Positions 22,565-43,968 of a stretch of DNA of 64,000 bases are shown piece by piece; the first letter of the stretch is position 1; the number at the start of each line of letters is the position of its first letter. Below the pieces are notes generated by a model. The model had not been told where the DNA came from. It ran no database searches and saw only the letters and a list, made by a program, of their open reading frames with translations. Source of the stretch: Candidatus Omnitrophota bacterium (lineage in GTDB: Bacteria; Omnitrophota; Gorgyraeia; Gygaellales; Profunditerraquicolaceae); the NCBI GenBank assembly GCA_043800555.1, contig JAZDMX010000002.1, forward strand, positions 668 to 64,667, written 5' to 3'. Made by a program: the position numbers and the translations under genes.

Positions 22565-23363
22565 TATAGGTAACCAAAATAGTGGTCTTACTGGAAAATT
22601 GATCCAACGCTTGCCCTTCCAAAGCCAACTTCTTGACCATGGCCTCGCTCATCCCGAATACGCCCTGGTATAGCCTTATTATGCAAATTTCTCCGTTTGT
22701 TTTGCGGAATGTCAAGCTGGCCTTGCTGGATGCAACCTTGATTTCTTCGCCGGCTATCTTTTTTGCCAGGGCCTTGCGGCATTCAGGGCAATCGGCAGTA
22801 TTTGCCGTTACCGGATCCTCGCCGGACAAACTCCAGCCATAGTTAAGCATGGCGGACTTGAAAAAGAAAATCACATCATCAATACTCTTAGTTGTCTCGT
22901 AAGCAGCCGAAGCCCCTGTCGGCCGATCCAAAAGGAAATCCTGTTTAGCCCCGGGGTAAACCGGCATAAAACCCAATTTATCCGGCGTCTCCTTACCGGA
23001 AGCCAGTATATCCTCTTTGGTAGGTATTTTAGTAGTGGTAACGCTAAAGCGCGTTTTGTTATCCCGGCGGCGTATCCGCGGGTTAACCGCGACAATAACC
23101 ATATACCCGTCTTTTAAATATACCCCGCTAGACTGTTCAGCCCAGCCTTCACGAAGCAATTTTTTCTTATACATCGCAATGATATCGTTTCCGGAAAGAG
23201 CTGTCATATAAACCTGGATACGGGTCCGAGTCAAACCCGCGTCTACGTCCTTATCCATGGTCTTAACAGCGTCGGAAGGCAAGGGAAGGACTAATTCTTC
23301 GGCTTGCAGCAAATTAAAATACCCGCATATAAAAAATAAAAGCGCGCAGATAATTATCCTCAT
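22539..23363 (-). CDS. Hypothetical secreted protein (signal peptide MRIIICALLFFICGYFNLLQA) within the Tad locus
   Basis: ORF 22539..23384; start trimmed to the Met that begins a signal peptide; contains CPEC. No recognisable family. Confidence 0.5.
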   Translation of the reverse strand: MRIIICALLFFICGYFNLLQAEELVLPLPSDAVKTMDKDVDAGLTRTRIQVYMTALSGNDIIAMYKKKLLREGWAEQSSGVYLKDGYMVIVAVNPRIRRRDNKTRFSVTTTKIPTKEDILASGKETPDKLGFMPVYPGAKQDFLLDRPTGASAAYETTKSIDDVIFFFKSAMLNYGWSLSGEDPVTANTADCPECRKALAKKIAGEEIKVASSKASLTFRKTNGEICIIRLYQGVFGMSEAMVKKLALEGQALDQFSSKTTILVTYNGNKKNNQ

Positions 23364-23405
23364 CTCATCTCCTTTTCCAAACAAACGGCTGCTTTTTTGT
23401 TTTCC

Positions 23406-25937: not shown

Positions 25938-26282
25938 CTAATTAGCGGCGCCGGAATCTTCTGCCCTTGAACTGTAATGAGTAACCGCGCTCTCGTTAGC
26001 CTGTGATGTTTTCTCCCCGCCGCTTGTTTCCGTTAAGGTTGTTGCCGAACTGGCGACATAATCCGAGCTGGATTCGTTAATCTCCAGGCCCGAAGTATCC
26101 TGCTGGTAAGCCTTATGTTCCCGGCCTATCCAGTTGTCGGCCATATCCTTGATTTTTCCGCTTATCCCGCGTTTGAAATAAATCTCCATCCCAATCAACG
26201 CCAAGCTCACCACTCCGAGAAGAAGCACGATTTCGGTTAGATTCTGCCCTTTTCTTAATAGCTCCCGCTTCATCCGCTCCAT
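25938..26282 (-). CDS. Pilin-like protein (Flp-related N-terminus lacking EY, Ser/Thr-rich tail)
   Basis: MERMKRELLRKGQNLTEIVLLLGVVSLALIGMEIYFKRGISGKIKD…, then an S/T-rich C-terminus. Confidence 0.55.
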   Translation of the reverse strand: MERMKRELLRKGQNLTEIVLLLGVVSLALIGMEIYFKRGISGKIKDMADNWIGREHKAYQQDTSGLEINESSSDYVASSATTLTETSGGEKTSQANESAVTHYSSRAEDSGAAN

Positions 26283-26839
26283 CCATCATTTGAAGTAACG
26301 CCTAAGCTTTCGCTTGCCTGCCGGTCAAGCTGTTGGGCTCCGGTTTCAGTATTAGAGCTGCTAGAAGTTGTCCTATCGGTTGTTTTCTCTTCTAACTGCC
26401 ATTCCCTTATGGCGATATTCAATTCTTTCTGCTTCTCGTTAAGAAGGTCCTTTTGGATGCCTAAGGCGGTATTAAGCCCCTCCCATACAGAGCTGTGTTC
26501 CACAGAATTATGCATCTTGACTGCTAAAACGTTAATTTCATCCTGCAAAGCTTTTGTTTGCGCCTTAAGCGCGAGTATAGCGCTGGAATAACGATGGGAA
26601 TTGCCGTAAGTTATCGTGCTTACGGAGCTTGAATTTATTTCCGATTCCAAGCCTTTATTTTCCCTGCTGGAGGCGCTGGTATTTCCCGGAGAATAGCCTC
26701 CTGCGCCAAGCTGATCAGCCTGGCTGCGCAAGTTTCCCTGGAACCCGCGTTTAATATAAACCGTCATGGCAATAATAGCAGCCGCCACTATTGCCAGCAA
26801 ATATACGTATTCTAGCGTGCTTTGGCCCTTACGCAACAC
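26270..26839 (-). CDS. flp: Flp-family pilin with long C-terminal extension (189 aa)
   Basis: MLRKGQSTLEYVYLLAIVAAAIIAMTVYIKRGFQGNL…, then a coiled-coil and an S/T-rich tail. Confidence 0.75.
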   Translation of the reverse strand: MLRKGQSTLEYVYLLAIVAAAIIAMTVYIKRGFQGNLRSQADQLGAGGYSPGNTSASSRENKGLESEINSSSVSTITYGNSHRYSSAILALKAQTKALQDEINVLAVKMHNSVEHSSVWEGLNTALGIQKDLLNEKQKELNIAIREWQLEEKTTDRTTSSSSNTETGAQQLDRQASESLGVTSNDGWSG

Positions 26840-26846
26840 CGGTTAA

Positions 26847-27161
26847 CTAACTGCCCCAGTATTCTTTGCTTTGTTCGGCTACGGCTTCGTTGCCGGTTTT
26901 TTGCTGTTGATTCTGGTTAATAGTAGTTGTTGTAACCCCGGCGTCAACGTTCTCCGACTGCCCTATATTGGTCGTAGTGGTATAGCTTGAAGTAGTATAC
27001 CCCGGAGAATACTGCTGGCCGACCTGATCCGTAGATTCTTTCAACCTCCCTTGGACTCCGCGCTTCATATACACGCCCATAGCGATAAGGGCTGCTACTA
27101 CGAACGAAATCAAGATAACGTATTCTAACGTGCTTTGTCCCCGTGACTTACGCTTAAGCAT
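26847..27161 (-). CDS. flp: Flp-family pilin with Thr-rich tail (104 aa)
   Basis: MLKRKSRGQSTLEYVILISFVVAALIAMGVYMKRGVQGRL…TTSSYTTTTN…TTTT. Strong SD (AAGGAGGTG) upstream. Confidence 0.8.
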   Translation of the reverse strand: MLKRKSRGQSTLEYVILISFVVAALIAMGVYMKRGVQGRLKESTDQVGQQYSPGYTTSSYTTTTNIGQSENVDAGVTTTTINQNQQQKTGNEAVAEQSKEYWGS

Positions 27162-27187
27162 CTCTTCACCTCCTTAAAAAATACGCC

Positions 27188-27526
27188 CTAAGGATTACTC
27201 TGGTTAACCGCAGCCTTAACCGTTTGAGTCCCTGTCCTGGATGCGGCAGTATTAACGGTCCTGGCAACCCCTCCGCCTGTAGCTGTATCTTCTGTATCAG
27301 TAGCGGATTGGGTAGAGCTCATGGCTGACTGCGTGTAATATGGCTCATACTGCGCGGTTGTGCCGGTAACATTATCTCCGGAATCCTTATAATCCACCGC
27401 GTCCTTGATTTTTCCCTGCAGCCCGCGTTTAACATAGACTTGCATAGCCACTACCGCGGCAACAACCAAACCTATAACTATGGCGTATTCCGCGGTGCTC
27501 TGGCCCTTTCTTGTCAGCTTAAACAT
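27188..27526 (-). CDS. flp: Flp-family pilin with Thr/Ala-rich tail (112 aa)
   Basis: MFKLTRKGQSTAEYAIVIGLVVAAVVAMQVYVKRGLQGKI…; SD AGGAGGT upstream. Confidence 0.8.
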   Translation of the reverse strand: MFKLTRKGQSTAEYAIVIGLVVAAVVAMQVYVKRGLQGKIKDAVDYKDSGDNVTGTTAQYEPYYTQSAMSSTQSATDTEDTATGGGVARTVNTAASRTGTQTVKAAVNQSNP

Positions 27527-28122: not shown

Positions 28123-30276
28123 TTAAGGCCTGGCGAGAAAGCGCTTTCCATCCAAAACCGCCTCTCTTTCATTTATCCTTTGGCAGAAATAGGCCAGGTC
28201 ATTGCCAAAGGCGTAACCTTCTGCGGGCAAGACAAACTCGGCTACGTAATTTTCCCCGCCCTTATCTAACCGCGCGCCTAAATCATAAAAACGCTCCTGG
28301 GTAACCGCAAAATCTTTGTCCTCATAGCCTGCCGGCAGGAAATGCCAACGGCTGTAAGCGTCTAAAACCGCCAGATAATTCTCAAACAGGGACTTGACGC
28401 TTGAATCCCGGGTCAATCCCGAATTAATATTTTCGGCGTTAAAAAACCTCCGGGAATCAGCGGTATAGGTGAAAAGCTCTATTTTCCGGCTGTAATCCTG
28501 AAAGGCCTCGTCGAGATTCGGCCAATGGCTAAGGTACAAACAAGCTATTTCTTCGGCCCTTTTGGCCCCGGGCTCCAGGTTGCTCAAGATAACCAAACGG
28601 GTTTTTCCGGTAATGGCTGTCTTTAAAGCGCAGCCTCTTAAGATTACCTGCTTAGCGTTCCCGGAATTACGCAATTCCATCTCTATATCCGCGATAAAAA
28701 AATCCTTGCCCTGGCCTTCCAAGCGATAGGGCCGGAAATCTCCTATGCTCCTGACCTTGCGGCATTCGATAAACTGCCAGGGCCATACGCCAAAAATAAA
28801 AAGGTGTTTGCCGGCCTGGGATACAGGCAAAGTTTCCAACTCCTCGAGTTTGTTCCCGTGGATAGTCAGGCTGTTTACGCTATTTTCCTTTGCCTCAAGC
28901 CCGGCAAGAAGATTAAAAAATTCCTGCGAAGGCGAATCATAACCCGGGGCGTTAAAAAGGATAAGCGGGGCAGCCGTATTAAAAGATTTATTTATCCTCT
29001 TCTTTAAATCATGTAGCGGAGAGGAAAAATCATAAGGCATATACGGGCTTGACCAAACTGAATAGAATTGGCCGTCCAGGTAAAGAGTTGAACCGTCGGA
29101 TAAACTAACCTTTAGGCAACGGGCCTCGCGCAGAGCAAAATCCATAATGCGCCAGATACCCAGGCCGATTACCTTGATGTTTTCTATAGCGTCCAAACAG
29201 CCGTTTAGCTTATCTTCTAAAGATTTTTCTATTTTTCCCCGCAGTAAAGGCAGGTAAATAATACTCTCCGTTATGCCTTCAAAATCCCACCCGCTTTCTG
29301 GAAGCCGGTTTTTAATTTCCGCGGCAATTAATTTGCTTACGCCGAGAACGGAATCTACCGCCCTAAGCAATATGATGCCGGTATTTTCCAGTTGTAAAGG
29401 CCTATCGAATGTAAATATACTGGCCTCCTTGCCGGCCGGCTCTTTTGCCTCGCCTCCCATAGCTTGCCTGCCGGATTCTTCTTTGTCCCCGGCGCCGGCA
29501 TCTTCCTTGCGGGTAAGCTCTTCTTCTTGGGCTTTCCTGGCTGCTTCTGCCCGGGCCTTCTGCAATTCTTCCTCCCGGCGCTTAGCCTCTTCTTCTATCT
29601 GAAGCGCTTTTAACCTTTCGGCTTCGGCTTTGATTTTTTGTTCTGCCTCTTCCCGGGCCGCTCTTATTTCTTCCTGACGGCGTTCTTCTTCAAGAACGCG
29701 CTCTCTTTCCCGAACGATTTCTTCTTCCTGCCTGCGGATAGCTTTTTCCTCTGCTTCTTTCACCGGCCCACTGCCATCGATGGGCAAGGGGAGCAAAGTA
29801 ATCTGGCTAACGGGAATTTCCTGCCCGCCGGCAGGCAGGCTGCTTTGGGACTTATCATCCTCGAAATGTTTGGGGTTTTCCGAAGGCTGGGCTGTTACGG
29901 ATTTTGCCTCTGCTTTTTGGGATGATGCGTCTTCCAATAAAACAGGAAGCTTGGGCATAACAATGCGCTGCTTCTTCTGTTTGGGGGCCCTTCCAACAGG
30001 AGCGCTCAAACCAACCTCTTTTATAATCCTGTTTATGGCGGACTTAGACAAGGCTATTTTATAGTGATCCAGGGCTAAGGCGGTTAATTTACGGCAGCTT
30101 AAGGCAGGATTGGATTTCTTTTGCTCTATTATAAAATCCCTTATTTCCGGTTTTAGCTTATGCACTACACCCATATATCTCCTGACAATAGAAATTTTCT
30201 TATCGAAAATATCCCCTTGCAGCGGGCGTTGAAATGCCTGCCCTGCTGTAACTCGCTCCAGATTGGACATTTTCAA
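28123..30276 (-). CDS. HTH-domain protein with a long Glu/Arg/Lys-rich coiled-coil and an about 400-aa C-terminal domain of unknown function (possibly transposase-derived regulator)
   Basis: 717 aa; N-terminal …IIEQKKSNPALSCRKLTALALDHYKIALSKSAINRIIKEVGL (HTH-like). Charged heptad region EEKAIRRQEEEIVRERERVLEEERRQEEIRAAREEAEQKIKAEAERLKALQIEE…; no family recognised for the C-terminus. Confidence 0.5.
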   Translation of the reverse strand: MKMSNLERVTAGQAFQRPLQGDIFDKKISIVRRYMGVVHKLKPEIRDFIIEQKKSNPALSCRKLTALALDHYKIALSKSAINRIIKEVGLSAPVGRAPKQKKQRIVMPKLPVLLEDASSQKAEAKSVTAQPSENPKHFEDDKSQSSLPAGGQEIPVSQITLLPLPIDGSGPVKEAEEKAIRRQEEEIVRERERVLEEERRQEEIRAAREEAEQKIKAEAERLKALQIEEEAKRREEELQKARAEAARKAQEEELTRKEDAGAGDKEESGRQAMGGEAKEPAGKEASIFTFDRPLQLENTGIILLRAVDSVLGVSKLIAAEIKNRLPESGWDFEGITESIIYLPLLRGKIEKSLEDKLNGCLDAIENIKVIGLGIWRIMDFALREARCLKVSLSDGSTLYLDGQFYSVWSSPYMPYDFSSPLHDLKKRINKSFNTAAPLILFNAPGYDSPSQEFFNLLAGLEAKENSVNSLTIHGNKLEELETLPVSQAGKHLFIFGVWPWQFIECRKVRSIGDFRPYRLEGQGKDFFIADIEMELRNSGNAKQVILRGCALKTAITGKTRLVILSNLEPGAKRAEEIACLYLSHWPNLDEAFQDYSRKIELFTYTADSRRFFNAENINSGLTRDSSVKSLFENYLAVLDAYSRWHFLPAGYEDKDFAVTQERFYDLGARLDKGGENYVAEFVLPAEGYAFGNDLAYFCQRINEREAVLDGKRFLARP

Positions 30277-30434: not shown

Positions 30435-30797
30435 TCACTCTAAGGTAATGTGATCGCCCACGGCTGTAAAGCTATCTTTGATTGCCCCGGAAGGAAGTTC
30501 AATGACATAATTGGCTTGGAAATATATCCTGGTGAATTTAAACGGCTTAATACCGGAAAGGGTTTGAATGACCTTATTATCCCTGCCCATAAATAAGGCA
30601 TCAATGGAAAATCGCATAAAGAACGTGTGGATGGAATTACAGGGTTTAATTATAAGGGCTTGGCTTTTATTAAAACTTTTCTTTCCTAACAGGCCTTTGA
30701 TCCTCTTAAGCGGGGAACCGGCAATAAAAACGTCGCCGGCTACAACTGTATTCCGGGTTTTATTAATCAGGCGCATAGAGTTAATAGGAAGATACAA
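30435..30797 (-). CDS. DUF192 (COG1430) family protein
   Basis: 120 aa; …IIKPCNSIHTFFMRFSIDALFMGRDNKVIQ… matches the conserved core of DUF192. Confidence 0.6.
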   Translation of the reverse strand: MYLPINSMRLINKTRNTVVAGDVFIAGSPLKRIKGLLGKKSFNKSQALIIKPCNSIHTFFMRFSIDALFMGRDNKVIQTLSGIKPFKFTRIYFQANYVIELPSGAIKDSFTAVGDHITLE

Positions 30798-30818: not shown

Positions 30819-32981
30819 CTATTTATTGGGCTTACTGGGTTTGAATATTTCTTCCGAGACCACGATGCCGCGCACCCGGATCTCGTCGAGAAAAGAAGGC
30901 TTGTATCCGGTGGCGGTAAAATACCCGTGCACCTTGCCCTGGGCGTCCACCCCGGTCTGCTTAAAGACGAATATATCGTTAAGAATAATGTGCAACTCGT
31001 CTTTCATCCCGGTAATTTCAGATACAGCCATGATTTTACGCGAGCCGTCGGATAACCGGGCCGTATGGACTATTATGTCGACGGCAGAGGCGATCATTTC
31101 GCGTATGGCCCTGACCGGGAGCTCTACTCCCGACATAAGGATCATGGAATCCAGCCGGGACAAAACATCATAGGTGGAATTGGCGTGAATGGTGGTCATC
31201 GAACCGTCGTGGCCGGTATTCATTGCCTGAAGCATATCCAGAGACTCTGTCCCGCGGCATTCGCCGACGATAATCCTGTCCGGGCGCATGCGCAGGGTAT
31301 TGCGGAAAAGGTCTTTTATGGCAACCGCGCCCTTGCCCTCGATGTTCGGCGGACGGCTCTCCAATCTTACCCAATGCTCCTGGTTTAGTTTTAATTCGGC
31401 GGCATCCTCTAAGGTTATGATCCTCTCGTTATTGGGGATATGCTCGGAGAGGGCGTTAAGCACGGTGGTTTTGCCGGAGCCGGTGCCGCCGGAAACAATC
31501 ATGTTCTTACGGCATAGAACGCAAGTCATGATAAAATCCGCCATTTCCTGCGTAAGCGCGCCCAAAGCAATCAGGTCTTTCGTCTTATACCTCTCCTTGC
31601 GGAATTTCCTGATTGTTAACGTCGGGCCTGTTAAGGCAAGCGGCGGGATAATCGCGTTTACGCGCGAGCCATCGGCAAGGCGGGCGTCAACCATAGGCAC
31701 AGATTCATCGATACGCCTTCCGATAGGGGCGATTATGCGTTCGATGATCGTGCGGACCTGCTCGTTAGAGATGAATTTCTTGCTGGTTGGCTCGATCCTG
31801 CCGTGTTTTTCGACAAAGATTTCATCTTTGTTATTAACCATAATATCGGTGATATCCGTATCGGCCAAAAGGTCCTCTAAGGGCCCCAGCCCCAGGGCTT
31901 CATCAAGTATTTCTTTAACAAGCTTTTTCCTGTCGTCCTGGGAAGGGATAAAACTTCCCGCTTCTTCCAGCAAAAGATTAGCTACGGTAATTTCCGCCCT
32001 GTCTCTTAATTCTTTGGTTTTCTTGTAGTCGCTGAAGACATTCAGGTTCATTAACTTGATATTCATGCCGTCGAGAAGGCGGCTATGTATTTTCCTCTTA
32101 AGGGCCAAAACTTCATCCCTGTCTTCTGAACTCGGCTCAACCACCGTATCAGTCAGGCCCTGCTCTTGCCAAAATTGCCCCGGTTTTTCCAACCCGCTAG
32201 ACTTTAAAGCAATTTCATCGAGGTTCTTCCTGTCTACGAATAAATTTTTGTTCGCGCAAAGCGCGCGGGCCAATCCTATAATCGACTGCGCTACCCGCGA
32301 ATGCGGCGCATCGATAACAACCGGCACTCCCCGGTTCACCGCCTGGTTTACTACTCTTCCGTCGGAAGGGATCCTCTCAATTATTTCCAAAGGGATGTTA
32401 TTGCGGATCTCCTGCCAGCTTATGCTCGAGGAGGACTCTGCCCGGTTAAGCACAAGCCTTATCATGTTCAAAGGAAAATGCAGCACCTGCAGGGTATCCA
32501 GCATCCATTTAGTCTGATACACCGAAAGCACGTCCGGAGTAACCATCAAAAGCATTAAATTCGCCTGATTTAAAGCGGAGAGGAAAACGTTGTTAAAGCT
32601 CTCTCCCGCGTCGGAGATTATATAATCGTAATCTTTATCCAGAAAAGAAAAGACTTCCTGGATCATTTCCGGGTGCAGGTGCGCCGCCTGTTGCGGCCTC
32701 AAAATACCCGTCAGGAAATCCACGCTATAAAGGTTGGTCTTAACGACAAAATCCTCTTTTTTGGTCTTTTGCGGCTGTTTTTGCAGGAAGCCCATAAGGT
32801 CGGCTATTGATTTCTGCGGGCTGAGGTTAAGCATATGCGCCATGTCTCCGACCACATGGGTATCCAGGTCAATAAGGCAAACCCGGTTGCCTTCGGCGGC
32901 AAGAGCCACCGCCAGGCTGGAAGTAATCAGCGTCTTGCCTGTCCCGCCTTTAGTGCTGAATATTACTATTCTTTTGGCCAT
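30819..32981 (-). CDS. cpaF: Fusion of a CpaE/TadZ-like ParA/MinD ATPase domain (N-terminal) with the CpaF/TadA secretion ATPase (C-terminal)
   Basis: 720 aa; N-term MAKRIVIFSTKGGTGKTLITSSLAVALAAEGNRVCLIDLD (deviant Walker A of ParA/MinD). C-term …MIVSGGTGSGKTTVLNALS…RIITLEDAAEL…GHDGSMTTIHANS… (VirB11/CpaF family). Confidence 0.8.
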   Translation of the reverse strand: MAKRIVIFSTKGGTGKTLITSSLAVALAAEGNRVCLIDLDTHVVGDMAHMLNLSPQKSIADLMGFLQKQPQKTKKEDFVVKTNLYSVDFLTGILRPQQAAHLHPEMIQEVFSFLDKDYDYIISDAGESFNNVFLSALNQANLMLLMVTPDVLSVYQTKWMLDTLQVLHFPLNMIRLVLNRAESSSSISWQEIRNNIPLEIIERIPSDGRVVNQAVNRGVPVVIDAPHSRVAQSIIGLARALCANKNLFVDRKNLDEIALKSSGLEKPGQFWQEQGLTDTVVEPSSEDRDEVLALKRKIHSRLLDGMNIKLMNLNVFSDYKKTKELRDRAEITVANLLLEEAGSFIPSQDDRKKLVKEILDEALGLGPLEDLLADTDITDIMVNNKDEIFVEKHGRIEPTSKKFISNEQVRTIIERIIAPIGRRIDESVPMVDARLADGSRVNAIIPPLALTGPTLTIRKFRKERYKTKDLIALGALTQEMADFIMTCVLCRKNMIVSGGTGSGKTTVLNALSEHIPNNERIITLEDAAELKLNQEHWVRLESRPPNIEGKGAVAIKDLFRNTLRMRPDRIIVGECRGTESLDMLQAMNTGHDGSMTTIHANSTYDVLSRLDSMILMSGVELPVRAIREMIASAVDIIVHTARLSDGSRKIMAVSEITGMKDELHIILNDIFVFKQTGVDAQGKVHGYFTATGYKPSFLDEIRVRGIVVSEEIFKPSKPNK

Positions 32982-32982: not shown

Positions 32983-34617
32983 CTATTCCAATTGATAAAT
33001 AATGGGAATGTCTATCCAAAGATCATTTTCTTTTATTGCGGGAGGAAACGGGGGATACGGCGCTATTTTTCGAGCCGCGCTTAAAGCGTCATCGTCGAGC
33101 ATGCGGGACATTGAAGATTCCTTGATTTTCGAATCCAGCAATTCCCCCTGATAAGAAAGCCTGAGGCTCAACTTTACCGTGCCCTGCAAACCCAGTTGCC
33201 TGGCTTCGGACGGATAAGAAAGATTATCCAGTATCTTTCTCTGGATTATTTTACAATAGTTTAAAACCGGATCCTGCTCCTTGTCGTTAACGGCCAAAGG
33301 GGCATCCGCCGCAGGCGCCTTTTCTATTGCCTCTTCTTGCGGCTTTTGAGGGTAAACGATTCTCGGCGTAAGCGTAATAAATAATTCTGTATCGGTTAAA
33401 TTATCGGTGTCGGAATTCCAGCCCTGCTGGGTTGTTTTTTGCCTGAAGATGGCCCCTAAAACAGGGATCTCGGAAAGCCAGGGGACCCGGCGCAGTGTCT
33501 CTTTATTCTTCTTTTTAATTAAGCCTCCGATGGCCATGGTCTCGCCGTCGTTAAGGAATAACTCGGTGGTCGCGGTGCGCTTAGTCATTTTATACGCCAA
33601 GGCATAAGTAGTCTCCACCTGGTCCCCTAATTCGCTGACCACGACATTCAGGTTAAGGTGGACACGGCCAGAATCTTCGAGCCTGGGGTTTATGCTAAGG
33701 ATTATCCCGTATTCTTTATACTCGACAGTCCCTCCCGTGGTTGCGCCAACCGAGCTAGAGCCGCTTGTGCCCGGGGTGACTGTGCCGCTTAAAACCGGGA
33801 CTTCCCCTCCGACAACCAACTTTGCTTCTTTACCGCTCTGGCAGGAAAGCCTGGGCCGGGAAAGTATTCTCGCCTTGCCCTCCTGTATTAAGGCGTCTAA
33901 TTTCAACGTAAATGGGTTTGCTGTCCCGTCTACTGAACGGGCAACATTAGAAACGTGGAAAACCTTGCCCCAGGTTGTGCCTCCGGCAGAAAGGGCGGCA
34001 GAGCCGACTTCGGTAAAAGTAACTGAACCCGGCCAGGTAAATCCCAGGTCATTCTCATGCCCGCTATTTATTTCGATTACCTGGACATCGATCTCCAGGC
34101 TTGCCTCCTCCTCTTTTACCACTATTAAATCAACCGCTTTTTCTTTGAGCGGCCCCAAAGCGATAGCGATCCTGTCTTTATCTTTAGGGGATTTTATGCT
34201 TCCCAACAGCATTACCTTTCCTTCTTCATCTTCGGCTTTAGTATTTACGCCGGATATACCGAGTTTGGACAATATATTATCTATCCGGCGCTTGATCGCT
34301 CCGGTATCTTCCGCATAAACTTTTATCCGGTAAGACTGTTCCCCGAAATTATCCCAAACAGTCAGGGTGGCCGTGCCGGCGGATTTAGGATTAAGCGTTA
34401 TCTCGGATTTACTGACGCTAACGACATCGGCGACCGCGGGCTTGCTGATAGAAACGCGCATAGGATTGCTCACCGGCACTATCTGGATCTCTCCGACAAA
34501 ACACTTCAATTCTTCAGCCGATGCGTCAATCGAATAAACCTTAAAAGGCATGATAATAACCGAAGCAATTACGAATATAAGGCCGGTAAGTAATCTTTTC
34601 ATTTTCCTCGCTCTCAT
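32983..34617 (-). CDS. cpaC: CpaC/RcpA-type secretin with an appended C-terminal TonB-C-like domain
   Basis: 544 aa; signal peptide. Secretin core …ARILSRPRLSCQSGKEAKLVVGGEVPVLSGTV…EYKEYGIILSINPRL… The last about 90 aa (…NYCKIIQRKILDNLSYPSEARQLGLQGTVKLSLRLSYQGELLDSKIKESSMSRMLDDDALSAARKIAPYPPFP…) match the TonB C-terminal consensus (YP..A…G.V.v.f.i…G.v…v..SSG…LD.aAl.av). Confidence 0.7.
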   Translation of the reverse strand: MRARKMKRLLTGLIFVIASVIIMPFKVYSIDASAEELKCFVGEIQIVPVSNPMRVSISKPAVADVVSVSKSEITLNPKSAGTATLTVWDNFGEQSYRIKVYAEDTGAIKRRIDNILSKLGISGVNTKAEDEEGKVMLLGSIKSPKDKDRIAIALGPLKEKAVDLIVVKEEEASLEIDVQVIEINSGHENDLGFTWPGSVTFTEVGSAALSAGGTTWGKVFHVSNVARSVDGTANPFTLKLDALIQEGKARILSRPRLSCQSGKEAKLVVGGEVPVLSGTVTPGTSGSSSVGATTGGTVEYKEYGIILSINPRLEDSGRVHLNLNVVVSELGDQVETTYALAYKMTKRTATTELFLNDGETMAIGGLIKKKNKETLRRVPWLSEIPVLGAIFRQKTTQQGWNSDTDNLTDTELFITLTPRIVYPQKPQEEAIEKAPAADAPLAVNDKEQDPVLNYCKIIQRKILDNLSYPSEARQLGLQGTVKLSLRLSYQGELLDSKIKESSMSRMLDDDALSAARKIAPYPPFPPAIKENDLWIDIPIIYQLE

Positions 34618-35537
34618 TTAGATATCGGGATTCTTTCTTTATTCGCCCCGCGGTAAATTTCTATCGTATCCGCCGAAGATTGCTCTTCTTTCTTTTCATG
34701 GCCTGCTGCCGGGTTTAACCCGGAATTGGCGTCTTGAGACTGCGGCATAATATACTGAAAGAGCGTATTCAGGTTAGCCGGCATAATCGGTTCGACTCTT
34801 GCATCTGCCGGAGAGCGCAGGGTAAAACGAATTTTACCCTGTTCCTGCACAAAGGCGATAAAACTGGATTCCTGGGGGGATAACGCCAAAGTAACTAAAA
34901 CCGTCCCGCCGGAGATAGGGGCTTCTTCTCTGGTGCGGCTGTGCTGGCTTACAGGGGCTCCGGTATTCTGGCCTACAGCCAAAACCAAGACATTTTGGAA
35001 TAACGGTATTACCGCTATTTGAGAGCCTTGCTGGCCGTCAGCGCCCTGGACCGGTATCTGAATCGTCGCGATAACATCCACATAATCCCCCGGTTTTACC
35101 ATGCCTGCCACAGAAGCTATATTATCAACCGCGACTGAAATCGCCCGCTTTCCTGCCGGGGTTATGCCGGCTAGATCTCCGCCGGCCTGCTTTACGTTAG
35201 CTAACTTCGAGAGGGTCACTTGCTCTCCCTTGGAAATAGGCGCCACGGTGACCATGCCGGAGACCCTGCTTAACGAAGTAACTGCCTGCGGCTGGACAAA
35301 TTTATTCGGCACAACAGCGGTATCTAGCGGCGCGGACTCTATATACGTGCCTTTAGGTATATCCTGCTTTGCCACTAAAACGGCGCTTTGATTGCTCTGG
35401 ATATTGGCAATCGCCCTTCTGGCCTCTTCCCGGGAGGCCTGCTGCTGATGATCCAGGTAGACCTTGACCATGACAATCGCCAATAACCCCAAAGCCACTC
35501 CGGCAATAAGTACAATTTTTTGTTTTTCAATAGGCAC
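34614..35537 (-). CDS. cpaB: Flp pilus assembly protein CpaB/RcpC
   Basis: 307 aa; N-terminal TM (IVLIAGVALGLLAIVMV), then a SAF-like region; adjacent to the secretin. Confidence 0.65.
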   Translation of the reverse strand: MPIEKQKIVLIAGVALGLLAIVMVKVYLDHQQQASREEARRAIANIQSNQSAVLVAKQDIPKGTYIESAPLDTAVVPNKFVQPQAVTSLSRVSGMVTVAPISKGEQVTLSKLANVKQAGGDLAGITPAGKRAISVAVDNIASVAGMVKPGDYVDVIATIQIPVQGADGQQGSQIAVIPLFQNVLVLAVGQNTGAPVSQHSRTREEAPISGGTVLVTLALSPQESSFIAFVQEQGKIRFTLRSPADARVEPIMPANLNTLFQYIMPQSQDANSGLNPAAGHEKKEEQSSADTIEIYRGANKERIPISK

Positions 35538-36448
35538 TATTTTATCTCTCCTTCGTTTATTTCAATTTTAGCTTCGCGGGAAAGCTTGCCGATTAGGTCC
35601 TCTACAACTTGCTGTTGCTTCAAAAAGGTAAGGCCGCGTTTTATATCATCCCACATATCGGAAAGCGACTTCTGTTTTCCTCCGTGCTTGAGCTCCAGCT
35701 TGATAATATAATACCCGTCGGGGCCCTTAAAAATACTGCTGATTTTTCCCAGCTCCAGGGAATCGGAGAAAGCTACTGCGTCAAACTGGGCGGGTTTCTG
35801 GCCTTTCTTGATGAAACCCAGGTCTCCGCCGTTTTTTGCGCTGGATGAAATCGAGCGTTCTTTGGCTAAAGTGGCAAAGTCCGCGCCCTGCAGCAGCTGG
35901 ATCATTATATCTTTGGCGTCCTGCTCGGTGGGAACGACAATTTCCCGTATCTGCCTTTCCTCGGGTTCTTTGAGCTGTTCTTTATAAGTATTATAATAAT
36001 CCTCTATCTCCTTGGAAGAGACGTCGACTTTCTGAGTAACGTCTTTAATCAACTGCAGGACTAACAGGTCCATCTTGGTTTTTTCCAGGGCCCGCAGGAC
36101 ATCTTCATTCCTGTCCAGGCCTTTATCCAAAGCATCCTGGTATAAGAGGGTCCGGCGGATTACTTCATTCTTAAGGTAAGCGATTTTCTGTTCGCGCGTG
36201 GTTACTTTAAGCTCGGGTTTATCGGCGGGCACATTGGCGTTGTAAAGATCGACCTCCTGGTTAAAATCATCCAGGCCTATCGAGATATTATTGACTTTGG
36301 CAACTATCGGGCCTTTTGGCTGGGCAGTCAAGGCGGGAATTTTTATTTCTACCTTACGCCCCCCGACCATTGAGTTAATCTTATTGCATCCTACAATAAC
36401 GCTAAAGAATAAACCTAAAACCGCCCACAAAATAATATTGCGTTTCAA
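35537..36448 (-). CDS. Parvulin-type peptidyl-prolyl isomerase lipoprotein (PrsA/SurA-like)
   Basis: 303 aa; lipoprotein signal (…FSVIVGC). PpiC domain …AKNGGDLGFIKKGQKPAQFDAVAFSDSLELGKISSIFKGPDGYYIIKLE. Confidence 0.7.
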   Translation of the reverse strand: MKRNIILWAVLGLFFSVIVGCNKINSMVGGRKVEIKIPALTAQPKGPIVAKVNNISIGLDDFNQEVDLYNANVPADKPELKVTTREQKIAYLKNEVIRRTLLYQDALDKGLDRNEDVLRALEKTKMDLLVLQLIKDVTQKVDVSSKEIEDYYNTYKEQLKEPEERQIREIVVPTEQDAKDIMIQLLQGADFATLAKERSISSSAKNGGDLGFIKKGQKPAQFDAVAFSDSLELGKISSIFKGPDGYYIIKLELKHGGKQKSLSDMWDDIKRGLTFLKQQQVVEDLIGKLSREAKIEINEGEIK

Positions 36449-37055: not shown

Positions 37056-37156
37056 GTTTTCGATTCCTGGAAAATACTTTTATAACGGAAATTTGGGATT
37101 CAGTTGCAAAAGCGAACATATTGTAATATAAAGAAGGAACCGGGTCAATAATTATG

Positions 37157-37185
37157 TTGACCCGGGTTCTCAAAGCGCTTATAAT
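37157..37185 (+). promoter_or_regulatory. Sigma-70-like promoter for the FIST/HK/RR operon: TTGACC, 17-nt spacer, TATAAT
   Basis: TTGACC at 37157-37162, 17-nt spacer, TATAAT at 37180-37185, ATG at 37193. The -35 is embedded in an inverted repeat GAACCGGGTCAA…TTGACCCGGGTTC (37137-37170). Confidence 0.55.
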
Positions 37186-37192
37186 ACAAAAC

Positions 37193-38383
37193 ATGCGTGT
37201 AGGCATAGGCGTAAGCACGGAACTCGATCACTTAAAAGCGGCAAAAGAAGCGGTTGAAAAAGCAACTGCCCAGCTAAACTCGGACAATATCGATTTTGCG
37301 TTTCTGTTTGCTACGAAAGAATTCAGCCATCAGCTAGTCTTGCAAACAATCGCCGGCCTTATCGGCTCAACACCCCTCCTTGGCTCAAGCAGCTCAATTA
37401 TCATATCCAAAAACGGGCCCTTGAAATACGGCCTGGCCCTTGCGCTCTTCAGCTTAAGCGAAGGCGCTTATTGCAACGCTGCTTGCGTCAAAAACATACC
37501 TGCGAATGGCACGCTGGCAGCCGGAGAAGAGCTGGGAGAAAAACTCTTGTATGGGTGCAAAGACGTGCGCCGCGATTTAAGCGTTATATTTTCCAATACG
37601 AATACGAGCGATTATTCAAACCTAATCATAGGCGTGCAGGAAAAACTAGGCAAAGGCTTCCCTTTGGTCGGGGCTTCCCTGTCAAAGAATACGGGAAGTC
37701 CCGAAAACCACGTTTATTTCGGCGCGGAAATATTAAATAACGCGGCTTGCGGGATACTCTGGGGCGGCAAGCTTAATTTTAGCTTAGGCATAGAACACGG
37801 CTGGCAGCCTTTGGGAAAGCCGCGTTACGTTACGCGGGCGCAGATGGATACGGTTAACGAAATAGACGGCTTGCCGGCGGTTAATTTATATAAAGAATAC
37901 TTCGGCAAAGAAATTCTCTCCCTGAAAAGAGAACTTAAGCGCATCTCGGTATTTTATCCGCTGGGGGTAGCTTTGCCCGAGAAAAACGAATACCTGGTAA
38001 GGAGCGTCGTATCGATAAAAAATGACGGCTCCCTTCTTTTTCAGGGAGAGGTCCCCGAAGGAAGCAAGGTCAGGCTTATGATCAGCTCAAAGGATTCCTG
38101 CCTGGCCAGCGTAGCTAAAGCCGCCCAGGCGGCCTTAAATAACGCCAAAGGCAAAAAAATTAAATTTGCGCTTGTATTAAATTCTTTATCGCGGTATGCT
38201 CTCTTAGGCAGGCAGGCCTCCCAAGAGATAAAAATCATGCGGGAGGCGCTGGGTAACGAAGTGCCCTTTGCCGGCGTATACACCTCGGCGGAACAAGCCC
38301 CTTTAAGCTCCGCTAACTACAGTTTGGGGAAAACATATTTTCACAATAACTCGATAGCGATATTAACCATAACCGAATGGTAA
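37193..38383 (+). CDS. FIST-domain sensory protein
   Basis: About 396 aa from MRVGIGVSTELDH…; the C-terminal …ALGNEVPFAGVYTSAEQAP… resembles the FIST_C motif. The ORF track begins at 37154, upstream of the promoter, so the downstream ATG is preferred. Confidence 0.55.
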   Translation: MRVGIGVSTELDHLKAAKEAVEKATAQLNSDNIDFAFLFATKEFSHQLVLQTIAGLIGSTPLLGSSSSIIISKNGPLKYGLALALFSLSEGAYCNAACVKNIPANGTLAAGEELGEKLLYGCKDVRRDLSVIFSNTNTSDYSNLIIGVQEKLGKGFPLVGASLSKNTGSPENHVYFGAEILNNAACGILWGGKLNFSLGIEHGWQPLGKPRYVTRAQMDTVNEIDGLPAVNLYKEYFGKEILSLKRELKRISVFYPLGVALPEKNEYLVRSVVSIKNDGSLLFQGEVPEGSKVRLMISSKDSCLASVAKAAQAALNNAKGKKIKFALVLNSLSRYALLGRQASQEIKIMREALGNEVPFAGVYTSAEQAPLSSANYSLGKTYFHNNSIAILTITEW

Positions 38384-38396
38384 CCCCTGTTCAGAA

Positions 38397-39872
38397 ATGC
38401 TGACTATTATAGTATTCGCCTTAACAACCATACCTCTTGCCCTGGTGCTCCTGTATAAAATACAGGGCATAAAGCAATTGCGTTCGCAAGTCAACAGCCT
38501 GAAAAAATCCCTCGATGATATGGATGAACAGGCCAAGCTTATCGTGCGCACGGATATGGAATTGAATAAAATAGGGGAAGAGCTGGATAAAAAGGTATCC
38601 GGCCTCTACGCGCTGCAAAGTTTATCCCGCATCATAAGCATGACCCTGGAGGAAGACCAAATATTTAAACGGATACAGCCGGAATATTTGAAGGAGCTGG
38701 GGTTTGAAAAGGCGTTTGGCTTTCTCTGGAACGATAAAAACAAGGATTTTGTTTTGCGTTTTAGCGTAGGATACTCCGAAGAGGAGGTCAAAGCGATAGA
38801 GTCGTTCATTAACGGCAATAAAGAAAGCTGCATGAATTTTATAACAAGCGACAAAACGCTGTCTTCTGTCTCGGCATCCAATAATTTAATCTCTACGCAG
38901 CAGTTAAATGAAATTTTCAAGGCCCACTCGTTTATCGTTTCCCCTTTGGCCCCTCAACAGAATAACCGGGGATTGATCTTTGCCGGGACGCAAAACTTGG
39001 AAACGCTGGTCACCGAAGGAGATGAGGAATTAATTAAAATACTCTCTACCCAGTTGGCCCAAGCCCTTGAAAATGCCCGTCTTTTTGAAAAGACCTGGCG
39101 CGCGCAGCAGGAGCTGGAACATAAAGTAACCGAAAGGACCCATGAATTAACCGTGGCCCTGGAAGAAGTAAAAAAGATAAGCGACCGCAAAACCAGTTTC
39201 GTTTCAAGCGTTTCCCACGAATTAAGGACGCCCCTTACTTCCATAAAAGGATACGCCGCGATAATGCTTGCCGGAAAATTAGGGGATTTACCGCCCGACG
39301 TGCGCCAACGGCTGGAGAAAATAAACCGGCATAGCGACGAACTTGTGCATATGGTCAACGAACTGCTGGATATATCCCGTATTGAATCCGGCCGGGTAAC
39401 GATGCGGGCAGAGATTTGCAACCTGAAAGAGATAGCGGATAAAACGGATGATTTATTATCCGGCCAACTAAAGGAACGGAAATTACATTTGACTGCTGAG
39501 ATTAACCCCGAGGCAAACTTAGTTTTAGCCGACAGGACGCAGATAGAGCGCGTATTTATAAACCTTGTGGGCAACGCGATGAAATTTACTCCGCCCGGCG
39601 GCGCGATAACCATAAAAAGCCGCAAAGCGGACAATATGGCGGAGGTCAGCGTAACGGATACCGGCTGCGGCATACCCGAAGAAGCGCATAACGTTATATT
39701 TGACGAATTCTACCGGGTGGATAATGCCATAAACCAGGAAGTTAAGGGGACGGGCTTAGGGCTGGCCCTTGTAAAACACATCGTTGAGGCTCATGGCGGA
39801 AGAATTTGGGTAAAAAGCCCTCCCGGAAGCGGAGCAACTTTTAGCTTTACGCTTCCGATAGCTTGCGCGTAA
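38397..39872 (+). CDS. Sensor histidine kinase (membrane anchor, coiled-coil, GAF-like region, HisKA, HATPase_c)
   Basis: H-box SHELRTPLTSIKGY; N/G1/G2 boxes …NLVGNAMKFT…DTGCGIP…GTGLGLALVKHIVEAHGG…. Confidence 0.85.
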   Translation: MLTIIVFALTTIPLALVLLYKIQGIKQLRSQVNSLKKSLDDMDEQAKLIVRTDMELNKIGEELDKKVSGLYALQSLSRIISMTLEEDQIFKRIQPEYLKELGFEKAFGFLWNDKNKDFVLRFSVGYSEEEVKAIESFINGNKESCMNFITSDKTLSSVSASNNLISTQQLNEIFKAHSFIVSPLAPQQNNRGLIFAGTQNLETLVTEGDEELIKILSTQLAQALENARLFEKTWRAQQELEHKVTERTHELTVALEEVKKISDRKTSFVSSVSHELRTPLTSIKGYAAIMLAGKLGDLPPDVRQRLEKINRHSDELVHMVNELLDISRIESGRVTMRAEICNLKEIADKTDDLLSGQLKERKLHLTAEINPEANLVLADRTQIERVFINLVGNAMKFTPPGGAITIKSRKADNMAEVSVTDTGCGIPEEAHNVIFDEFYRVDNAINQEVKGTGLGLALVKHIVEAHGGRIWVKSPPGSGATFSFTLPIACA

Positions 39873-39906
39873 TCAACCTGGGGGCTTTTAACGGATACTA
39901 TTAACT

Positions 39907-40842
39907 ATGTCCATAAAAATACTTATAGTCGATGATGACCCCGATATACGGGACGTATTAAAACTCACCCTCTCCGAGGAAAATTATGAAATACTGGAAG
40001 TGGGCGACGGAGAGGAAGCCCTGAAGGTAATCCACGACAACCAGCCTGACCTGATACTGCTGGATTATAAAATACCCAAGATTGACGGCCGCGAAGTATG
40101 CCGCAGAATAAAAAGCGATTTACTCCTGCGGCATTTACCTATAATTATGGTAACCGGTAAAGGCGATATAAGCGACAAGGTTGACGGCATTGACGCCGGC
40201 GCCGACGATTACGTAGTTAAGCCATTTGAGCCGAAAGAACTTCTGGCGCGGATCCGCATGATCTTAAGGCATACTGAACGCGACCTGGAAGCAAACCCGC
40301 TTACCCGCCTTCCCGGGAACGTTTCGATATTAAAAGAGCTCTCCACGCGCATCGAAAGCAAATCTTTATTTGCCGTATGCTACATAGACCTGGATAAATT
40401 CAAATCCTATAACGATAAATACGGGTTTGAGCACGGAGACGAGGTAATCCGCGAAACCGCGCGCATCCTGATACGCGCGACGCAGGAGCATGGCAATAAC
40501 AACGACTTCGTAGGGCACATAGGCGGAGACGATTTCGTAATCGTAACTACTCCTGAGAAAACTGACCCGCTATGCCAGAAAGTGATACTTGATTTCGAGA
40601 AGCTTGTCCCTTCCTTTTATAATGAAAATGACGGGAAAAACGGGTACATAATAGGCAAGGGAAGGCACGGACAGGAACAAAAAATACCTCTTCTCTCCAT
40701 ATCCATAGGTATAGTAACCAACCAATACCGCAAAGTTACTCACGTAGCCCAAATCGGAGAAATAGGCGCGGAGTTAAAAGCTTACGCTAAAAGCCTCGAA
40801 AGAAGTAACTATGTAAAAGACAGGCGCATAGAAAACAGATAA
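39907..40842 (+). CDS. Response regulator with receiver domain fused to a GGDEF-family domain carrying a non-canonical GGDDF motif
   Basis: REC: ILIVDDDPDIRD…DLILLDYKIPKIDG…; GGDEF-like: NPLTRLPGN…YIDLDKFKSYND…GHIGGDDFVIV. Confidence 0.8.
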   Translation: MSIKILIVDDDPDIRDVLKLTLSEENYEILEVGDGEEALKVIHDNQPDLILLDYKIPKIDGREVCRRIKSDLLLRHLPIIMVTGKGDISDKVDGIDAGADDYVVKPFEPKELLARIRMILRHTERDLEANPLTRLPGNVSILKELSTRIESKSLFAVCYIDLDKFKSYNDKYGFEHGDEVIRETARILIRATQEHGNNNDFVGHIGGDDFVIVTTPEKTDPLCQKVILDFEKLVPSFYNENDGKNGYIIGKGRHGQEQKIPLLSISIGIVTNQYRKVTHVAQIGEIGAELKAYAKSLERSNYVKDRRIENR

Positions 40843-43949: not shown

Positions 43950-43968
43950 TTTTACGCGCCGTTAAACT

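Follow-up and report, generated by a model that had tools for sequence, protein, structure and literature searches.

A Tad pilus secretin of Omnitrophota carrying a C-terminal TonB-type domain

Type II and type III secretion systems, type IV pili and filamentous phage all use secretins as their gates in the outer membrane, and how these proteins are targeted and anchored there is a recurring question. The secretins of Tad/Flp pili form SDS-resistant channels of 13-14 subunits. In the 64-kb stretch of Omnitrophota DNA analysed here (the window), the gene for such a secretin appeared in a first-pass annotation to run on into a TonB C-terminal-like domain (TonB_C), which raises the questions of whether a single protein really combines the two and what a TonB-type domain would do on a pilus channel. 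Omnitrophota are ultra-small and proposed to be host-dependent, and it has been suggested that they attach by means of their Tad pilus (PMC10066038).

Domain composition of the secretin

The gene encoding this Tad (Flp, type IVc) pilus secretin with its C-terminal TonB_C (32983..34617, minus strand, as are all genes described below) is complete, forming one stop-free open reading frame of 544 aa that contains both motifs quoted in the first-pass annotation. Its ATG overlaps the stop codon of cpaB (ATGA), and 1 nt separates its own stop from the ATG of cpaE/F. The protein begins with a predicted Sec signal peptide (residues 1 to ~34; 34516..34617), read from the sequence with an inferred cleavage site, which has a basic n-region, the hydrophobic core LLTGLIFVIASVIIMPF and an A-S-A/E cleavage-type motif and is not a TonB-type membrane anchor; the AF2 model places a helix at residues 2-17, followed by low-confidence residues. 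Next is T2SS-T3SS_pil_N (residues 34-100; 34318..34518; Pfam PF13629, E 1e-9, above cutoff), the N-terminal domain typical of RcpA/CpaC secretins, which is present in 65 of 67 diverse homologues (Pfam) and is modelled as all-beta with pLDDT 96-98. A second periplasmic alpha/beta domain, predicted by AF2 to be BON/N1-like (residues ~101-170; 34108..34317), has the order helix-strand-strand-helix-strand at pLDDT 93-97, and a few homologues give Pfam BON or YscD Bon-like matches. Pfam returned no match to Secretin_N or STN on the 544-aa protein, the N0/STN domain and Secretin_N repeats being a trait of GspD and PilQ.

The channel domain (residues 242-421; 33355..33894) matches Secretin PF00263 over profile positions 1-168 of 169 (E 7.8e-40, 136.7 bits). 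The secretin part also matches 8jvb (E 5.6e-27) and RcpA 8odn (E 2.1e-21) in PDB sequence searches, and 9wfd/8jvb and 8odn in Foldseek. Behind it lies a linker of ~28 aa (residues ~422-449; 33271..33354) that is predicted to be disordered (AF2 pLDDT <50) and is rich in P, E, K, A and Q, in place of the long proline-rich, periplasm-spanning spacer of TonB. Linkers across the family range from 20 to 361 aa (median 42), are E/A/K/S/P-rich with 7.5% Pro, and are the least conserved segment of the protein, with a top-residue fraction of 0.59 against 0.77 in the tail and 0.82 in the secretin core.

The tail is a TonB/TolA-type C-terminal domain by Pfam, NCBIfam, AF2 and Foldseek (residues ~450-544; 32986..33270). 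Pfam TonB_C PF03544 matches residues 465-543 (32989..33225) with E 6.7e-17 and 62.1 bits (gathering cutoff 24.6) over 78 of the 79 profile positions; TonB_2 also matches (E 2.8e-5), as does NCBIfam tonB_Cterm TIGR01352 (E 5.3e-16, 58.7 bits against a cutoff of 27.1). The earlier estimate of ~90 residues for this part was right, the folded domain including an extra N-terminal helix. It carries a YP motif, a PYPPFP loop and the terminal beta-strand WIDIPIIYQL, and the chain ends 2 residues past the last strand. Searched alone against PDB sequences, the tail retrieved only TonB/HasB C-terminal domains, among them H. pylori TonB (5lw8/6sly, E 1e-4).

Structure prediction agrees with these profiles. 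The tail is modelled with a helix-helix-strand-strand-helix-strand topology at pLDDT 92-98 (92.1 when modelled separately) and superposes on solved TonB C-terminal domains with TM 0.72-0.78 and rmsd 1.5-3 Å (Foldseek), best on 9dc4_T (TM 0.78, rmsd 1.5 Å) and 2gsk_B (TM 0.77, rmsd 1.8 Å). Against TonB chains from receptor complexes (9dc4_T, 2gsk_B, 2grx_C, 6i97_D) the rmsd is 1.5-2.1 Å, TolAIII bound to a TolB peptide (6s3w) is also matched, and the top 25 Foldseek PDB matches are all TonB, FusB, HasB or TolA C-terminal domains. The model thus gives the tail the TonB/TolA C-terminal domain fold of helix, two-strand hairpin, helix and terminal edge strand. With the C-terminal domains of TonB, HasB, FusB and TolA, represented by H. 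pylori TonB-CTD (5lw8/6sly), E. coli TonB-BtuB (2gsk), N. meningitidis TonB (9dc4) and TolAIII (6s3w), the predicted domain shares not only the fold and the YP motif but also a G-x-V strand, an SSG...LD helix and a terminal IPI strand.

Integrity, operon context and distribution of the fusion

The name of a 100% identical public protein at NCBI (P0001), 'TonB family protein [Candidatus Omnitrophota bacterium]', might suggest an artefact or misannotation, either a secretin and a tonB gene joined by a frameshift or missed stop or a genuine TonB that resembles a secretin. This has virtually no chance of being correct and is refuted by the comparative data. The strength of the Secretin match speaks against it, the DNA at the junction of secretin and tail contains no stop, ambiguous base or homopolymer run, and the linker offers neither a start site nor a membrane anchor for a second protein. 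The identical in-frame fusion occurs in all 79 complete orthologous reading frames from 80 GTDB species genomes, which are independent assemblies, thereby excluding a frameshift or assembly error. It also extends to divergent homologues, since our own HMM detected the tail in 144 of the 150 best 50%-identity cluster representatives (of the six lacking it, four are obvious fragments; nine representatives have two tails) and Pfam detected TonB_C in 66 of 67 diverse homologues. Conservation of the tail is similar to that of the N-terminal domains. By these counts and this conservation the fusion is real and selected, and the CpaC/RcpA-type Tad secretin fused to TonB_C that had been proposed from the sequence is borne out by profile, structural and comparative evidence alike.

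The gene sits in a conserved Tad operon, for which synteny was counted over 80 loci from 80 species genomes, all of Omnitrophota type. The first gene of the conserved block encodes a lipoprotein parvulin-type PPIase with a SurA-like N-terminal region, a PrsA/SurA-like foldase (35537..36448; Pfam Rotamase/SurA_N), which is syntenic in 71/80 loci and also present at the locus of the most distant member. Its lipobox (...L-G-C-(D/N)-K) is conserved. It is followed by the periplasmic alignment-ring protein CpaB/RcpC (34614..35537; TIGR03177, E 1e-47; Pfam RcpC/SAF), syntenic in 76/80 loci, with a TM helix at its N-terminus and, at its C-terminus, a conserved hairpin motif (...TIEIYRGANKERIPISK). 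Downstream of the secretin, a MinD/ParA-like CpaE (residues 1-250) is fused to the CpaF/TadA secretion ATPase (residues 363-643; 30819..32981; Pfam, NCBIfam) in a gene that is likewise syntenic in 76/80 loci and fused at the P0266 locus too. A DUF192 protein (30435..30797; Pfam E 4.9e-15) follows, present in 66/80 loci and at one unfused locus, DUF192 being a common companion of tad loci.

Beyond these lie a conserved 717-aa protein with an E/K-rich centre (28123..30276; syntenic in 60/80 loci), which has no Pfam match, and four paralogous small genes for Flp-like pilins (25938..27526) with class-III-type signal peptides (KGQST(A/L)EY) and a weak Class_IIIsignal match, syntenic in 44-51 of the 80 loci. 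The distal part of the tad operon (20655..24962; Pfam Tad and T2SSF matches) encodes a TadG/TadE-like protein of 518 aa (23406..24962), a 281-aa protein of no named family (22539..23384), TadB (21517..22497) and TadC (20655..21515). Its domains and this context show that the fused protein serves a complete Tad/Flp pilus machine of an Omnitrophota bacterium as its outer-membrane secretin. It shares with RcpA/CpaC secretins (P. aeruginosa RcpA-TadD, PDB 8odn) the pil_N domain and the secretin barrel, and with their loci an operon of RcpC/CpaB, TadZ/CpaE, TadA/CpaF, TadB, TadC, pilins and DUF192. It differs from them in that a lipoprotein PPIase gene, absent from the unfused CpaC loci examined, precedes cpaB, and in that CpaE and CpaF, which are separate genes at one unfused-secretin locus, are fused.

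A survey of homologues shows that the fusion is conserved throughout the Omnitrophota Tad secretin clade. The first-pass description of such a secretin as unusual therefore holds with respect to characterised secretins and the unfused CpaC relatives retrieved, from which the tail is absent, but not within this clade, where the tail is the rule. The nearest unfused CpaC proteins are much more remote relatives, with at most 31% identity over about 60% of the length, and their genes have no adjoining separate tonB-like gene. An origin of the tail from an adjoining tonB gene was considered and rejected for this reason, and no other TonB_C-like reading frame was found within ±10 kb at the 80 related loci. 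All named members of the family are Omnitrophota, and no genuine case of the fusion outside this phylum emerged among the family members retrieved.

Two sets of deposited sequences, one 5-kb contig labelled Nitrospirota and several MAGs deposited as "uncultured Planctomycetales", carry other labels yet share the full Omnitrophota-type operon.

Possible roles of the tail

The protein is not a TonB energy transducer. Where TonB has an uncleaved N-terminal inner-membrane helix, it has a signal-peptide-like segment with A-x-A followed by the pil_N and secretin domains, and without an N-terminal membrane anchor the secretin itself cannot transduce energy. The C-terminal domains of TonB, HasB, FusB and TolA terminate inner-membrane-anchored proteins that are energised by ExbBD or TolQR, whereas here a short acidic tether joins TonB_C to an outer-membrane channel and the domain lacks its own membrane anchor, an arrangement that inverts the topology of TonB. 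The window ORFs that were scanned yielded no exbB, exbD, tolQ or tolR and no gene for a TonB-dependent receptor. A trio of TolQRA-sized genes (201, 145 and 217 aa; 60440..62094) proved to encode 5-FTHF cyclo-ligase, a NifU-like protein and a protein with an MTHFR C-terminal-type domain. The first-pass suggestion that the secretin couples the pilus channel to the PMF-dependent Ton/Tol machinery was not upheld, given the missing anchor and the lack of Ton/Tol genes among these ORFs.

A version of this coupling in which the tail would be a handle for a PMF-driven stator of the ExbBD, TolQR or PocAB type encoded elsewhere and acting on the secretin appears improbable. The fusion would then amount to a TonB that has handed its C-terminal half over to the outer-membrane protein it serves. 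This would fit the P. aeruginosa PocAB-TonB3 system, which is needed for type IVa pilus assembly and localisation and for which a direct, though undemonstrated, TonB3-PilQ contact has been proposed (PMC5285504), and TonB has been reported to heterodimerise with the periplasmic domain of ExbD (PMC9389320). PocAB-TonB3 and the fusion both link a TonB-type protein with a secretin-dependent pilus, but TonB3 is a separate inner-membrane protein with a motor, whereas the TonB_C described here is a covalent part of the secretin with no motor genes nearby. Linkers of 150-361 aa in some members would be long enough to span the periplasm, but the median of 42 aa and the 28 aa in this protein are not in favour of such a reach, the helix by which TonB contacts ExbB is absent, and stator genes were found neither in the 64-kb window nor in the conserved operon of 80 species.

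Rather than transducing energy, the tail could be a passive periplasmic docking or anchoring module that captures a partner peptide and takes over a pilotin-type role, a reading that we tentatively prefer and consider plausible, if somewhat short of probable. In RcpA the C-terminus is a short tail, and its final four residues are the binding site for the pilotin TadD, a TPR lipoprotein (PMC10499894). The chain described here instead runs on into the linker and a TonB_C of ~95 aa, so that the module would sit where P. aeruginosa RcpA has its TadD-binding residues, although such a tail, described in P. aeruginosa RcpA, may not be a trait of the family as a whole. Pfam scans of the locus ORFs in this one window gave no match to a TPR or TadD family. 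As no TadD-like TPR lipoprotein was detected at the locus, the module most likely fills a targeting, assembly or stabilisation role, which would be that of pilotin-binding tails, S-domains or AMIN domains in other secretins.

By extrapolation from RcpA, a ring of about 13-14 subunits would bear about 13-14 tethered TonB_C modules, and the secretin C-terminus would emerge at the periplasmic rim of the barrel, so that the modules would form a crown directly under the outer membrane. To our knowledge, all characterised TonB/TolA C-terminal domains capture partner peptides by beta-strand augmentation along their last strand. By analogy, each module may capture an extended partner peptide in this way, and the secretin would thereby be linked to a further component of the envelope while it assembles or operates. 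A precedent is provided by GltG and GltJ of the Myxococcus Agl-Glt gliding machine, in which TonB-CTD-like domains on long disordered tethers act as structural connectors in a trans-envelope machine that is neither a Ton system nor a nutrient importer (PMC11761067); these differ in being inner-membrane proteins that are coupled to the AglRQS motor and have GltD as a periplasmic partner.

No partner of the tail was found among the candidates compared, namely the CpaB C-terminus and the PPIase tether. Although similar to a TonB box and strongly conserved beyond a variable spacer, the CpaB C-terminus (…DTIEIYRG…) is better explained as the RcpC beta-hairpin. RcpC of P. aeruginosa has the same linker and hairpin, and the hairpin binds the N-domain of RcpA (PMC12307814). 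Since the general CpaB model TIGR03177 covers this motif too, it is not specific evidence for a partner of the tail. In the PPIase, the sequence that follows the lipidated Cys varies and contains no conserved strand motif.

Since linkers range from 20 to 361 aa and the tail occurs in one or two copies, a machine component at a constant distance is a poor candidate for the partner; a widely distributed target, for instance peptidoglycan or outer-membrane proteins in general, would fit better. This variability in length and number also resembles repeat-type wall-binding modules, and the tethered TonB_C modules might, as the first-pass annotation also suggested for peptidoglycan, bind the wall and fix the secretin in the envelope, as AMIN domains do for PilQ and the LysM proteins TsaP and FimV for type IVa secretins. 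We regard this as unlikely, though a serious alternative. A tether of 28-42 aa could reach the wall layer below the outer membrane, and the E. coli TonB C-terminal domain is said, by Kaserer in 2008 and Klebba in 2016, to bind peptidoglycan and to have LysM-like features. Wall-binding accessories also recur in secretin systems (PMC5285504). Set against this, the tail of this protein matched none of the peptidoglycan-binding families LysM, OmpA_C, SPOR, AMIN and PG_binding in Pfam or NCBIfam, the solved complexes of the fold among the Foldseek PDB matches are all protein-peptide complexes, and across the family most tails are acidic to neutral (median pI 5.3, 61% below pI 6), which is weak evidence.

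Crystals of TonB C-terminal fragments show intertwined dimers, and one such fragment (1u07) is among the fold matches of the tail. The tails might thus bind each other or the same secretin ring, for example as domain-swapped dimers, and act as an oligomerisation clamp, and 13-14 copies would give a high local concentration. This is very unlikely, as contacts between neighbours need neither very long linkers nor tandem copies, and in an odd-numbered ring (C13 in RcpA, PMC10499894) not all tails can pair. A passive docking module remains the preferred reading.

Novelty and significance

Databases name members of this family either "TonB family protein" or "CpaC", a split annotation that can mislead surveys. 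No description of a secretin with a TonB_C tail was found in the literature. A 2026 preprint on Omnitrophota genomes mentions "TonB-domain" genes beside giant ORFs and pilus genes without giving their identity, and these may be the secretin described here.

For secretins in general, the tail resembles the S-domain and pilotin of GspD/PulD-PulS/AspS, the AMIN domains of PilQ and the LysM proteins TsaP and FimV in being an optional, lineage-specific periplasmic module on a conserved secretin core. None of these modules is a TonB_C, their folds are unrelated to it, and AMIN is N-terminal; the C-terminal position is also that of the S-domain and the RcpA tail (PMC10499894, PMC5285504). TonB_C is thus a third kind of C-terminal secretin accessory, located at the pilotin-binding site of Tad secretins.

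TonB paralogues and pilus secretins are genetically linked in a way that is still unexplained, and the fusion offers a concrete, testable approach to this link. In a 'Rosetta stone' reading, to which we attach little likelihood, TonB-type C-terminal domains and pilus secretins would be physical partners, the capture domain having moved in Omnitrophota onto the outer-membrane channel, where an inner-membrane PMF motor (ExbBD/TolQR/PocAB-like) or the CpaB ring would engage it. If true, assembly, positioning or gating of the pilus channel would be mechanically coupled to the inner membrane, which would explain the need for TonB3/PocAB in Pseudomonas type IV pili. For Omnitrophota themselves, the fusion is fixed across the whole candidate phylum and is a clean marker of its type of Tad locus.

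Domain architecture and fold of the secretin

The secretin gene (32983..34617, minus strand) is a single open reading frame of 544 codons without a stop, encoding T2SS-T3SS_pil_N (residues 34-100, Pfam E 1e-9), Secretin (residues 242-421, E 7.8e-40) and TonB_C (residues 465-543, E 6.7e-17, covering 78 of the 79 profile positions and scoring 62.1 bits where the gathering cutoff is 24.6), with a weaker Pfam match to TonB_2. The NCBIfam model tonB_Cterm also matched (E 5.3e-16), and the NCBIfam GspD/PilQ-type secretin models gave only partial matches under their full-length cutoffs. Searched against PDB sequences, the last 122 residues matched only TonB and HasB C-terminal domains, the best being H. 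pylori TonB (5lw8/6sly, E 1e-4), and the secretin core matched the A. caldus secretin 8jvb and P. aeruginosa RcpA 8odn. Translational coupling links the gene to both neighbours: its ATG overlaps the stop codon of cpaB (ATGA), and the ATG of the next gene follows 1 nt after the secretin stop.

An AlphaFold2 model built from an alignment of 67 homologous sequences (28-81% identity) had a mean pLDDT of 81.6 and comprised two confidently predicted N-terminal domains, the sheets of the secretin (whose gate and lip loops have low confidence), a disordered linker (residues 427-439 in 539-aa numbering, pLDDT <50) and a C-terminal domain (the tail) of helix-helix-strand-strand-helix-strand topology at pLDDT 94-98. 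Modelled by itself, the tail reached pLDDT 92.1, and the 25 best matches that Foldseek gave for it in the PDB were all TonB, FusB, HasB or TolA C-terminal domains, including the TonB chains of receptor complexes 9dc4_T (TM 0.78, rmsd 1.5 Å), 2gsk_B (TM 0.77, rmsd 1.8 Å), 2grx_C and 6i97_D. The full-length model retrieved secretins first, RcpA 8odn among them, and the same TonB domains after. The tail belongs genuinely to the TonB/TolA C-terminal fold.

The identical public protein is named "TonB family protein [Candidatus Omnitrophota bacterium]". This identity was rejected, as the protein has no N-terminal inner-membrane helix, a signal-peptide-like start instead, and no long proline-rich spacer; by domain content, fold and operon it is a Tad/Flp pilus secretin.

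Distribution and conservation of the fusion

Precomputed Secretin and TonB_C domains were present in 119 of the 120 closest 90%-identity clusters (52-100% identity), the sole exception being a shorter protein of 450 aa (P0109), and Pfam TonB_C was found in 66 of 67 diverse homologues. When 1.84 billion 50%-identity representatives were searched exhaustively with phmmer, 261 matched at E ≤ 1e-30; the best 150 of these (28-55% identity) were scanned with HMMs built from close homologues. The fusion was present in 144 of these 150, with one tail after the Secretin domain in 135 and two in nine; four of the six representatives lacking it are obvious fragments. A scan of GTDB species-representative genomes gave 188 relatives, and the best 80 loci, all from Omnitrophota MAGs, were analysed. 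Every full-length match among them ran through the tail, which was in frame in 79 of 79 complete secretin ORFs, the two remaining ORFs being truncated by contig ends.

A search from the most divergent fused member (P0266, 28% identity) recovered 69 clusters at ≥419 bits, all of them fused and the named ones from Omnitrophota, followed by one fragment and then, at ≤128 bits, by ordinary CpaC proteins (Ralstonia, Planctomycetaceae and other sources), all lacking TonB_C. Because of this clear break in score, the fused secretins form a discrete clade. The first-pass annotation had proposed a Tad secretin fused to TonB_C, with a frameshift or missed stop as the possible artefact; domain models, fold matches and homologues agree on the fusion, the reading frame is uninterrupted with nothing remarkable in the junction DNA, and the in-frame homologues show that it is neither an artefact nor rare in its own lineage. 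Its description as unusual holds relative to unfused CpaC, but not within the lineage.

Thirteen loci (L004, L006-L008, L013, L031, L034, L041, L049, L051, L052, L069 and L074), deposited as 'uncultured Planctomycetales bacterium', carry a full Omnitrophota-type tad operon with a fused secretin at 44-64% identity, and one public protein, encoded on a contig of 5 kb, bears a Nitrospirota label. These submitter labels are probably wrong.

Conservation, measured as the mean top-residue fraction among the 120 close homologues, was 0.77 in the tail, 0.76-0.77 in the N-terminal domains, 0.82 in the secretin core and 0.59 in the linker; the tail is conserved on a par with the N-terminal domains. The terminal strand (ELW-x-x-IPIVY) and a YP motif are conserved in the tails, which are mostly acidic (median pI 5.3). 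Across the family the linker is low-complexity, rich in E/A/K/S/P and 20-361 residues long (median 42). Of the nine tandem-tail proteins, eight have copies that share 46-57% identity, and these duplications are therefore old. In P0269 (1091 aa, ENA metagenome) the copies show 100% identity across the aligned columns of the domain, pointing to either a very recent duplication or a repeat created in assembly.

The tad operon and its surroundings

The secretin gene lies inside a complete tad operon on the minus strand. In transcription order, a lipoprotein parvulin PPIase with a SurA-like N-terminus (35537..36448) and CpaB/RcpC (34614..35537) precede the secretin, which is followed by a CpaE(MinD-like)-CpaF(ATPase) fusion (30819..32981), DUF192, a conserved 717-aa protein without a Pfam family (28123..30276), four Flp-like pilins with class-III-type leaders (25938..27526), a TadG-like protein, a 281-aa protein without family assignment and finally TadB and TadC. 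Over the best 80 GTDB loci the first six genes, PPIase to 717-aa protein, are syntenic in 60-76 and the pilins in 44-51; the P0266 locus retains this front block except for the 717-aa protein.

The PPIase, whose lipobox is conserved with mostly Asp at +2, occurs alongside the fused secretin and may serve as a dedicated foldase or stand in for a pilotin; the nearest unfused CpaC loci inspected contained neither a PPIase nor a TonB_C gene. CpaE/TadZ (MinD/ParA-like, residues 1-250) and the CpaF/TadA ATPase (363-643) form one 720-aa protein, syntenic in 76 of the 80 Omnitrophota loci and present at the P0266 locus; they are separate genes at the unfused-secretin tad locus where both are present. 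The 717-aa protein (60 of 80 loci) has no evident signal peptide and a central Glu/Lys/Arg/Ala-rich stretch, and the four paralogous pilin-like genes encode proteins of 104-189 aa with the leader motif K/RGQST(A/L)EY and Ser/Thr-rich tails.

Upstream, a divergent cassette (37154..40842, plus strand) carries genes for a FIST-domain sensor, a GAF histidine kinase and a GGDEF-domain response regulator; its conservation in 35-39 of the 80 loci suggests that c-di-GMP regulates the pilus. Directly downstream of the operon and an OprB-like porin gene (19305..20534), on the same strand, a giant stop-free frame (3..18716, minus strand) of at least 6238 codons runs past the left window end, with a Peptidase_C39 match in its first 500 residues (E 7e-6; 26.3 bits, cutoff 22). 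The presence of giant ORFs beside genes for pili or secretion has been reported as a trait of Omnitrophota (2026 preprint). Cell-wall or glycan hydrolase genes near the locus (42828..45390 and 56041..57942, both minus strand) comprise a GHL10-type hydrolase, an SH3b-NlpC/P60 peptidase and a GH39-like protein, and a HEPN-domain protein adjoining a minimal nucleotidyltransferase (46431..47473, minus strand) is likely a HEPN/MNT toxin-antitoxin pair.

The first-pass annotation had also suggested that the tail couples the secretin to PMF-dependent Ton/Tol machinery. Such coupling would tie in with the need of Pseudomonas type IVa pili for PocAB-TonB3, which is unexplained (PMC5285504), but neither the window nor the conserved operon offers a supporting gene: the window ORFs scanned (most predicted genes) included no ExbB, ExbD, TolQ, TolR, TonB-dependent receptor or TPR pilotin, and there was no second TonB_C-like ORF within ±10 kb of the secretin at the best 80 GTDB loci. 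On present evidence this more exciting reading is unlikely, and we give it little credence.

Position and proposed role of the tail

In P. aeruginosa, the last four residues of RcpA, at the rim of a 13- or 14-mer, bind the pilotin TadD, and RcpA without this contact does not assemble into a secretin (PMC10499894). The linker of the fused secretin begins at the end of the aligned RcpA core, and therefore the tail occupies the C-terminal position of the TadD-binding residues. Because of this placement, some 13-14 tethered TonB_C modules would ring the channel beneath the outer membrane, where the tail could replace or extend the pilotin-binding tail. To our knowledge, every solved complex of the TonB/TolA C-terminal fold holds an extended partner peptide along the terminal strand, examples among the matched structures being the TonB boxes of BtuB, FhuA, FoxA and TbpA and, for TolA, the TolB N-terminus. 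TonB-CTD-like domains are predicted to be static connectors in the Myxococcus gliding machine (PMC11761067).

Two candidates were examined, and no partner was found. The conserved CpaB C-terminal motif (…YVEIYRGLNKEKVPLSK) resembles a TonB box, and was rejected as its equivalent is the beta-hairpin with which RcpC binds the RcpA N-domain; the tether of the lipoprotein PPIase is variable and carries no candidate motif. Anchoring to peptidoglycan is the main rival explanation, consistent with the variable tether length and tail copy number and with earlier reports of TonB binding the wall, but the acidic tails are unsupportive and no wall-binding signature was found; we consider it doubtful, if less so than energy coupling.

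Published work on the Omnitrophota Tad locus, which includes an RcpA phylogeny, mentions neither TonB nor a fusion (PMC10066038), and a 2026 preprint reports "TonB-domain" genes beside giant ORFs and pilus genes, gene identity not being stated. No account of the architecture turned up in full-text literature searches that paired secretin with the TonB C-terminal domain, with fusion or with Omnitrophota. The parts are familiar; the combination, real and clean, is undescribed and fixed in the lineage. Because of its RcpA-like position, the peptide capture typical of the fold, the conserved strand and YP motif and the Myxococcus precedent, we tentatively prefer to read the tail as a passive docking or anchoring module, which would help to target, assemble or stabilise the secretin.
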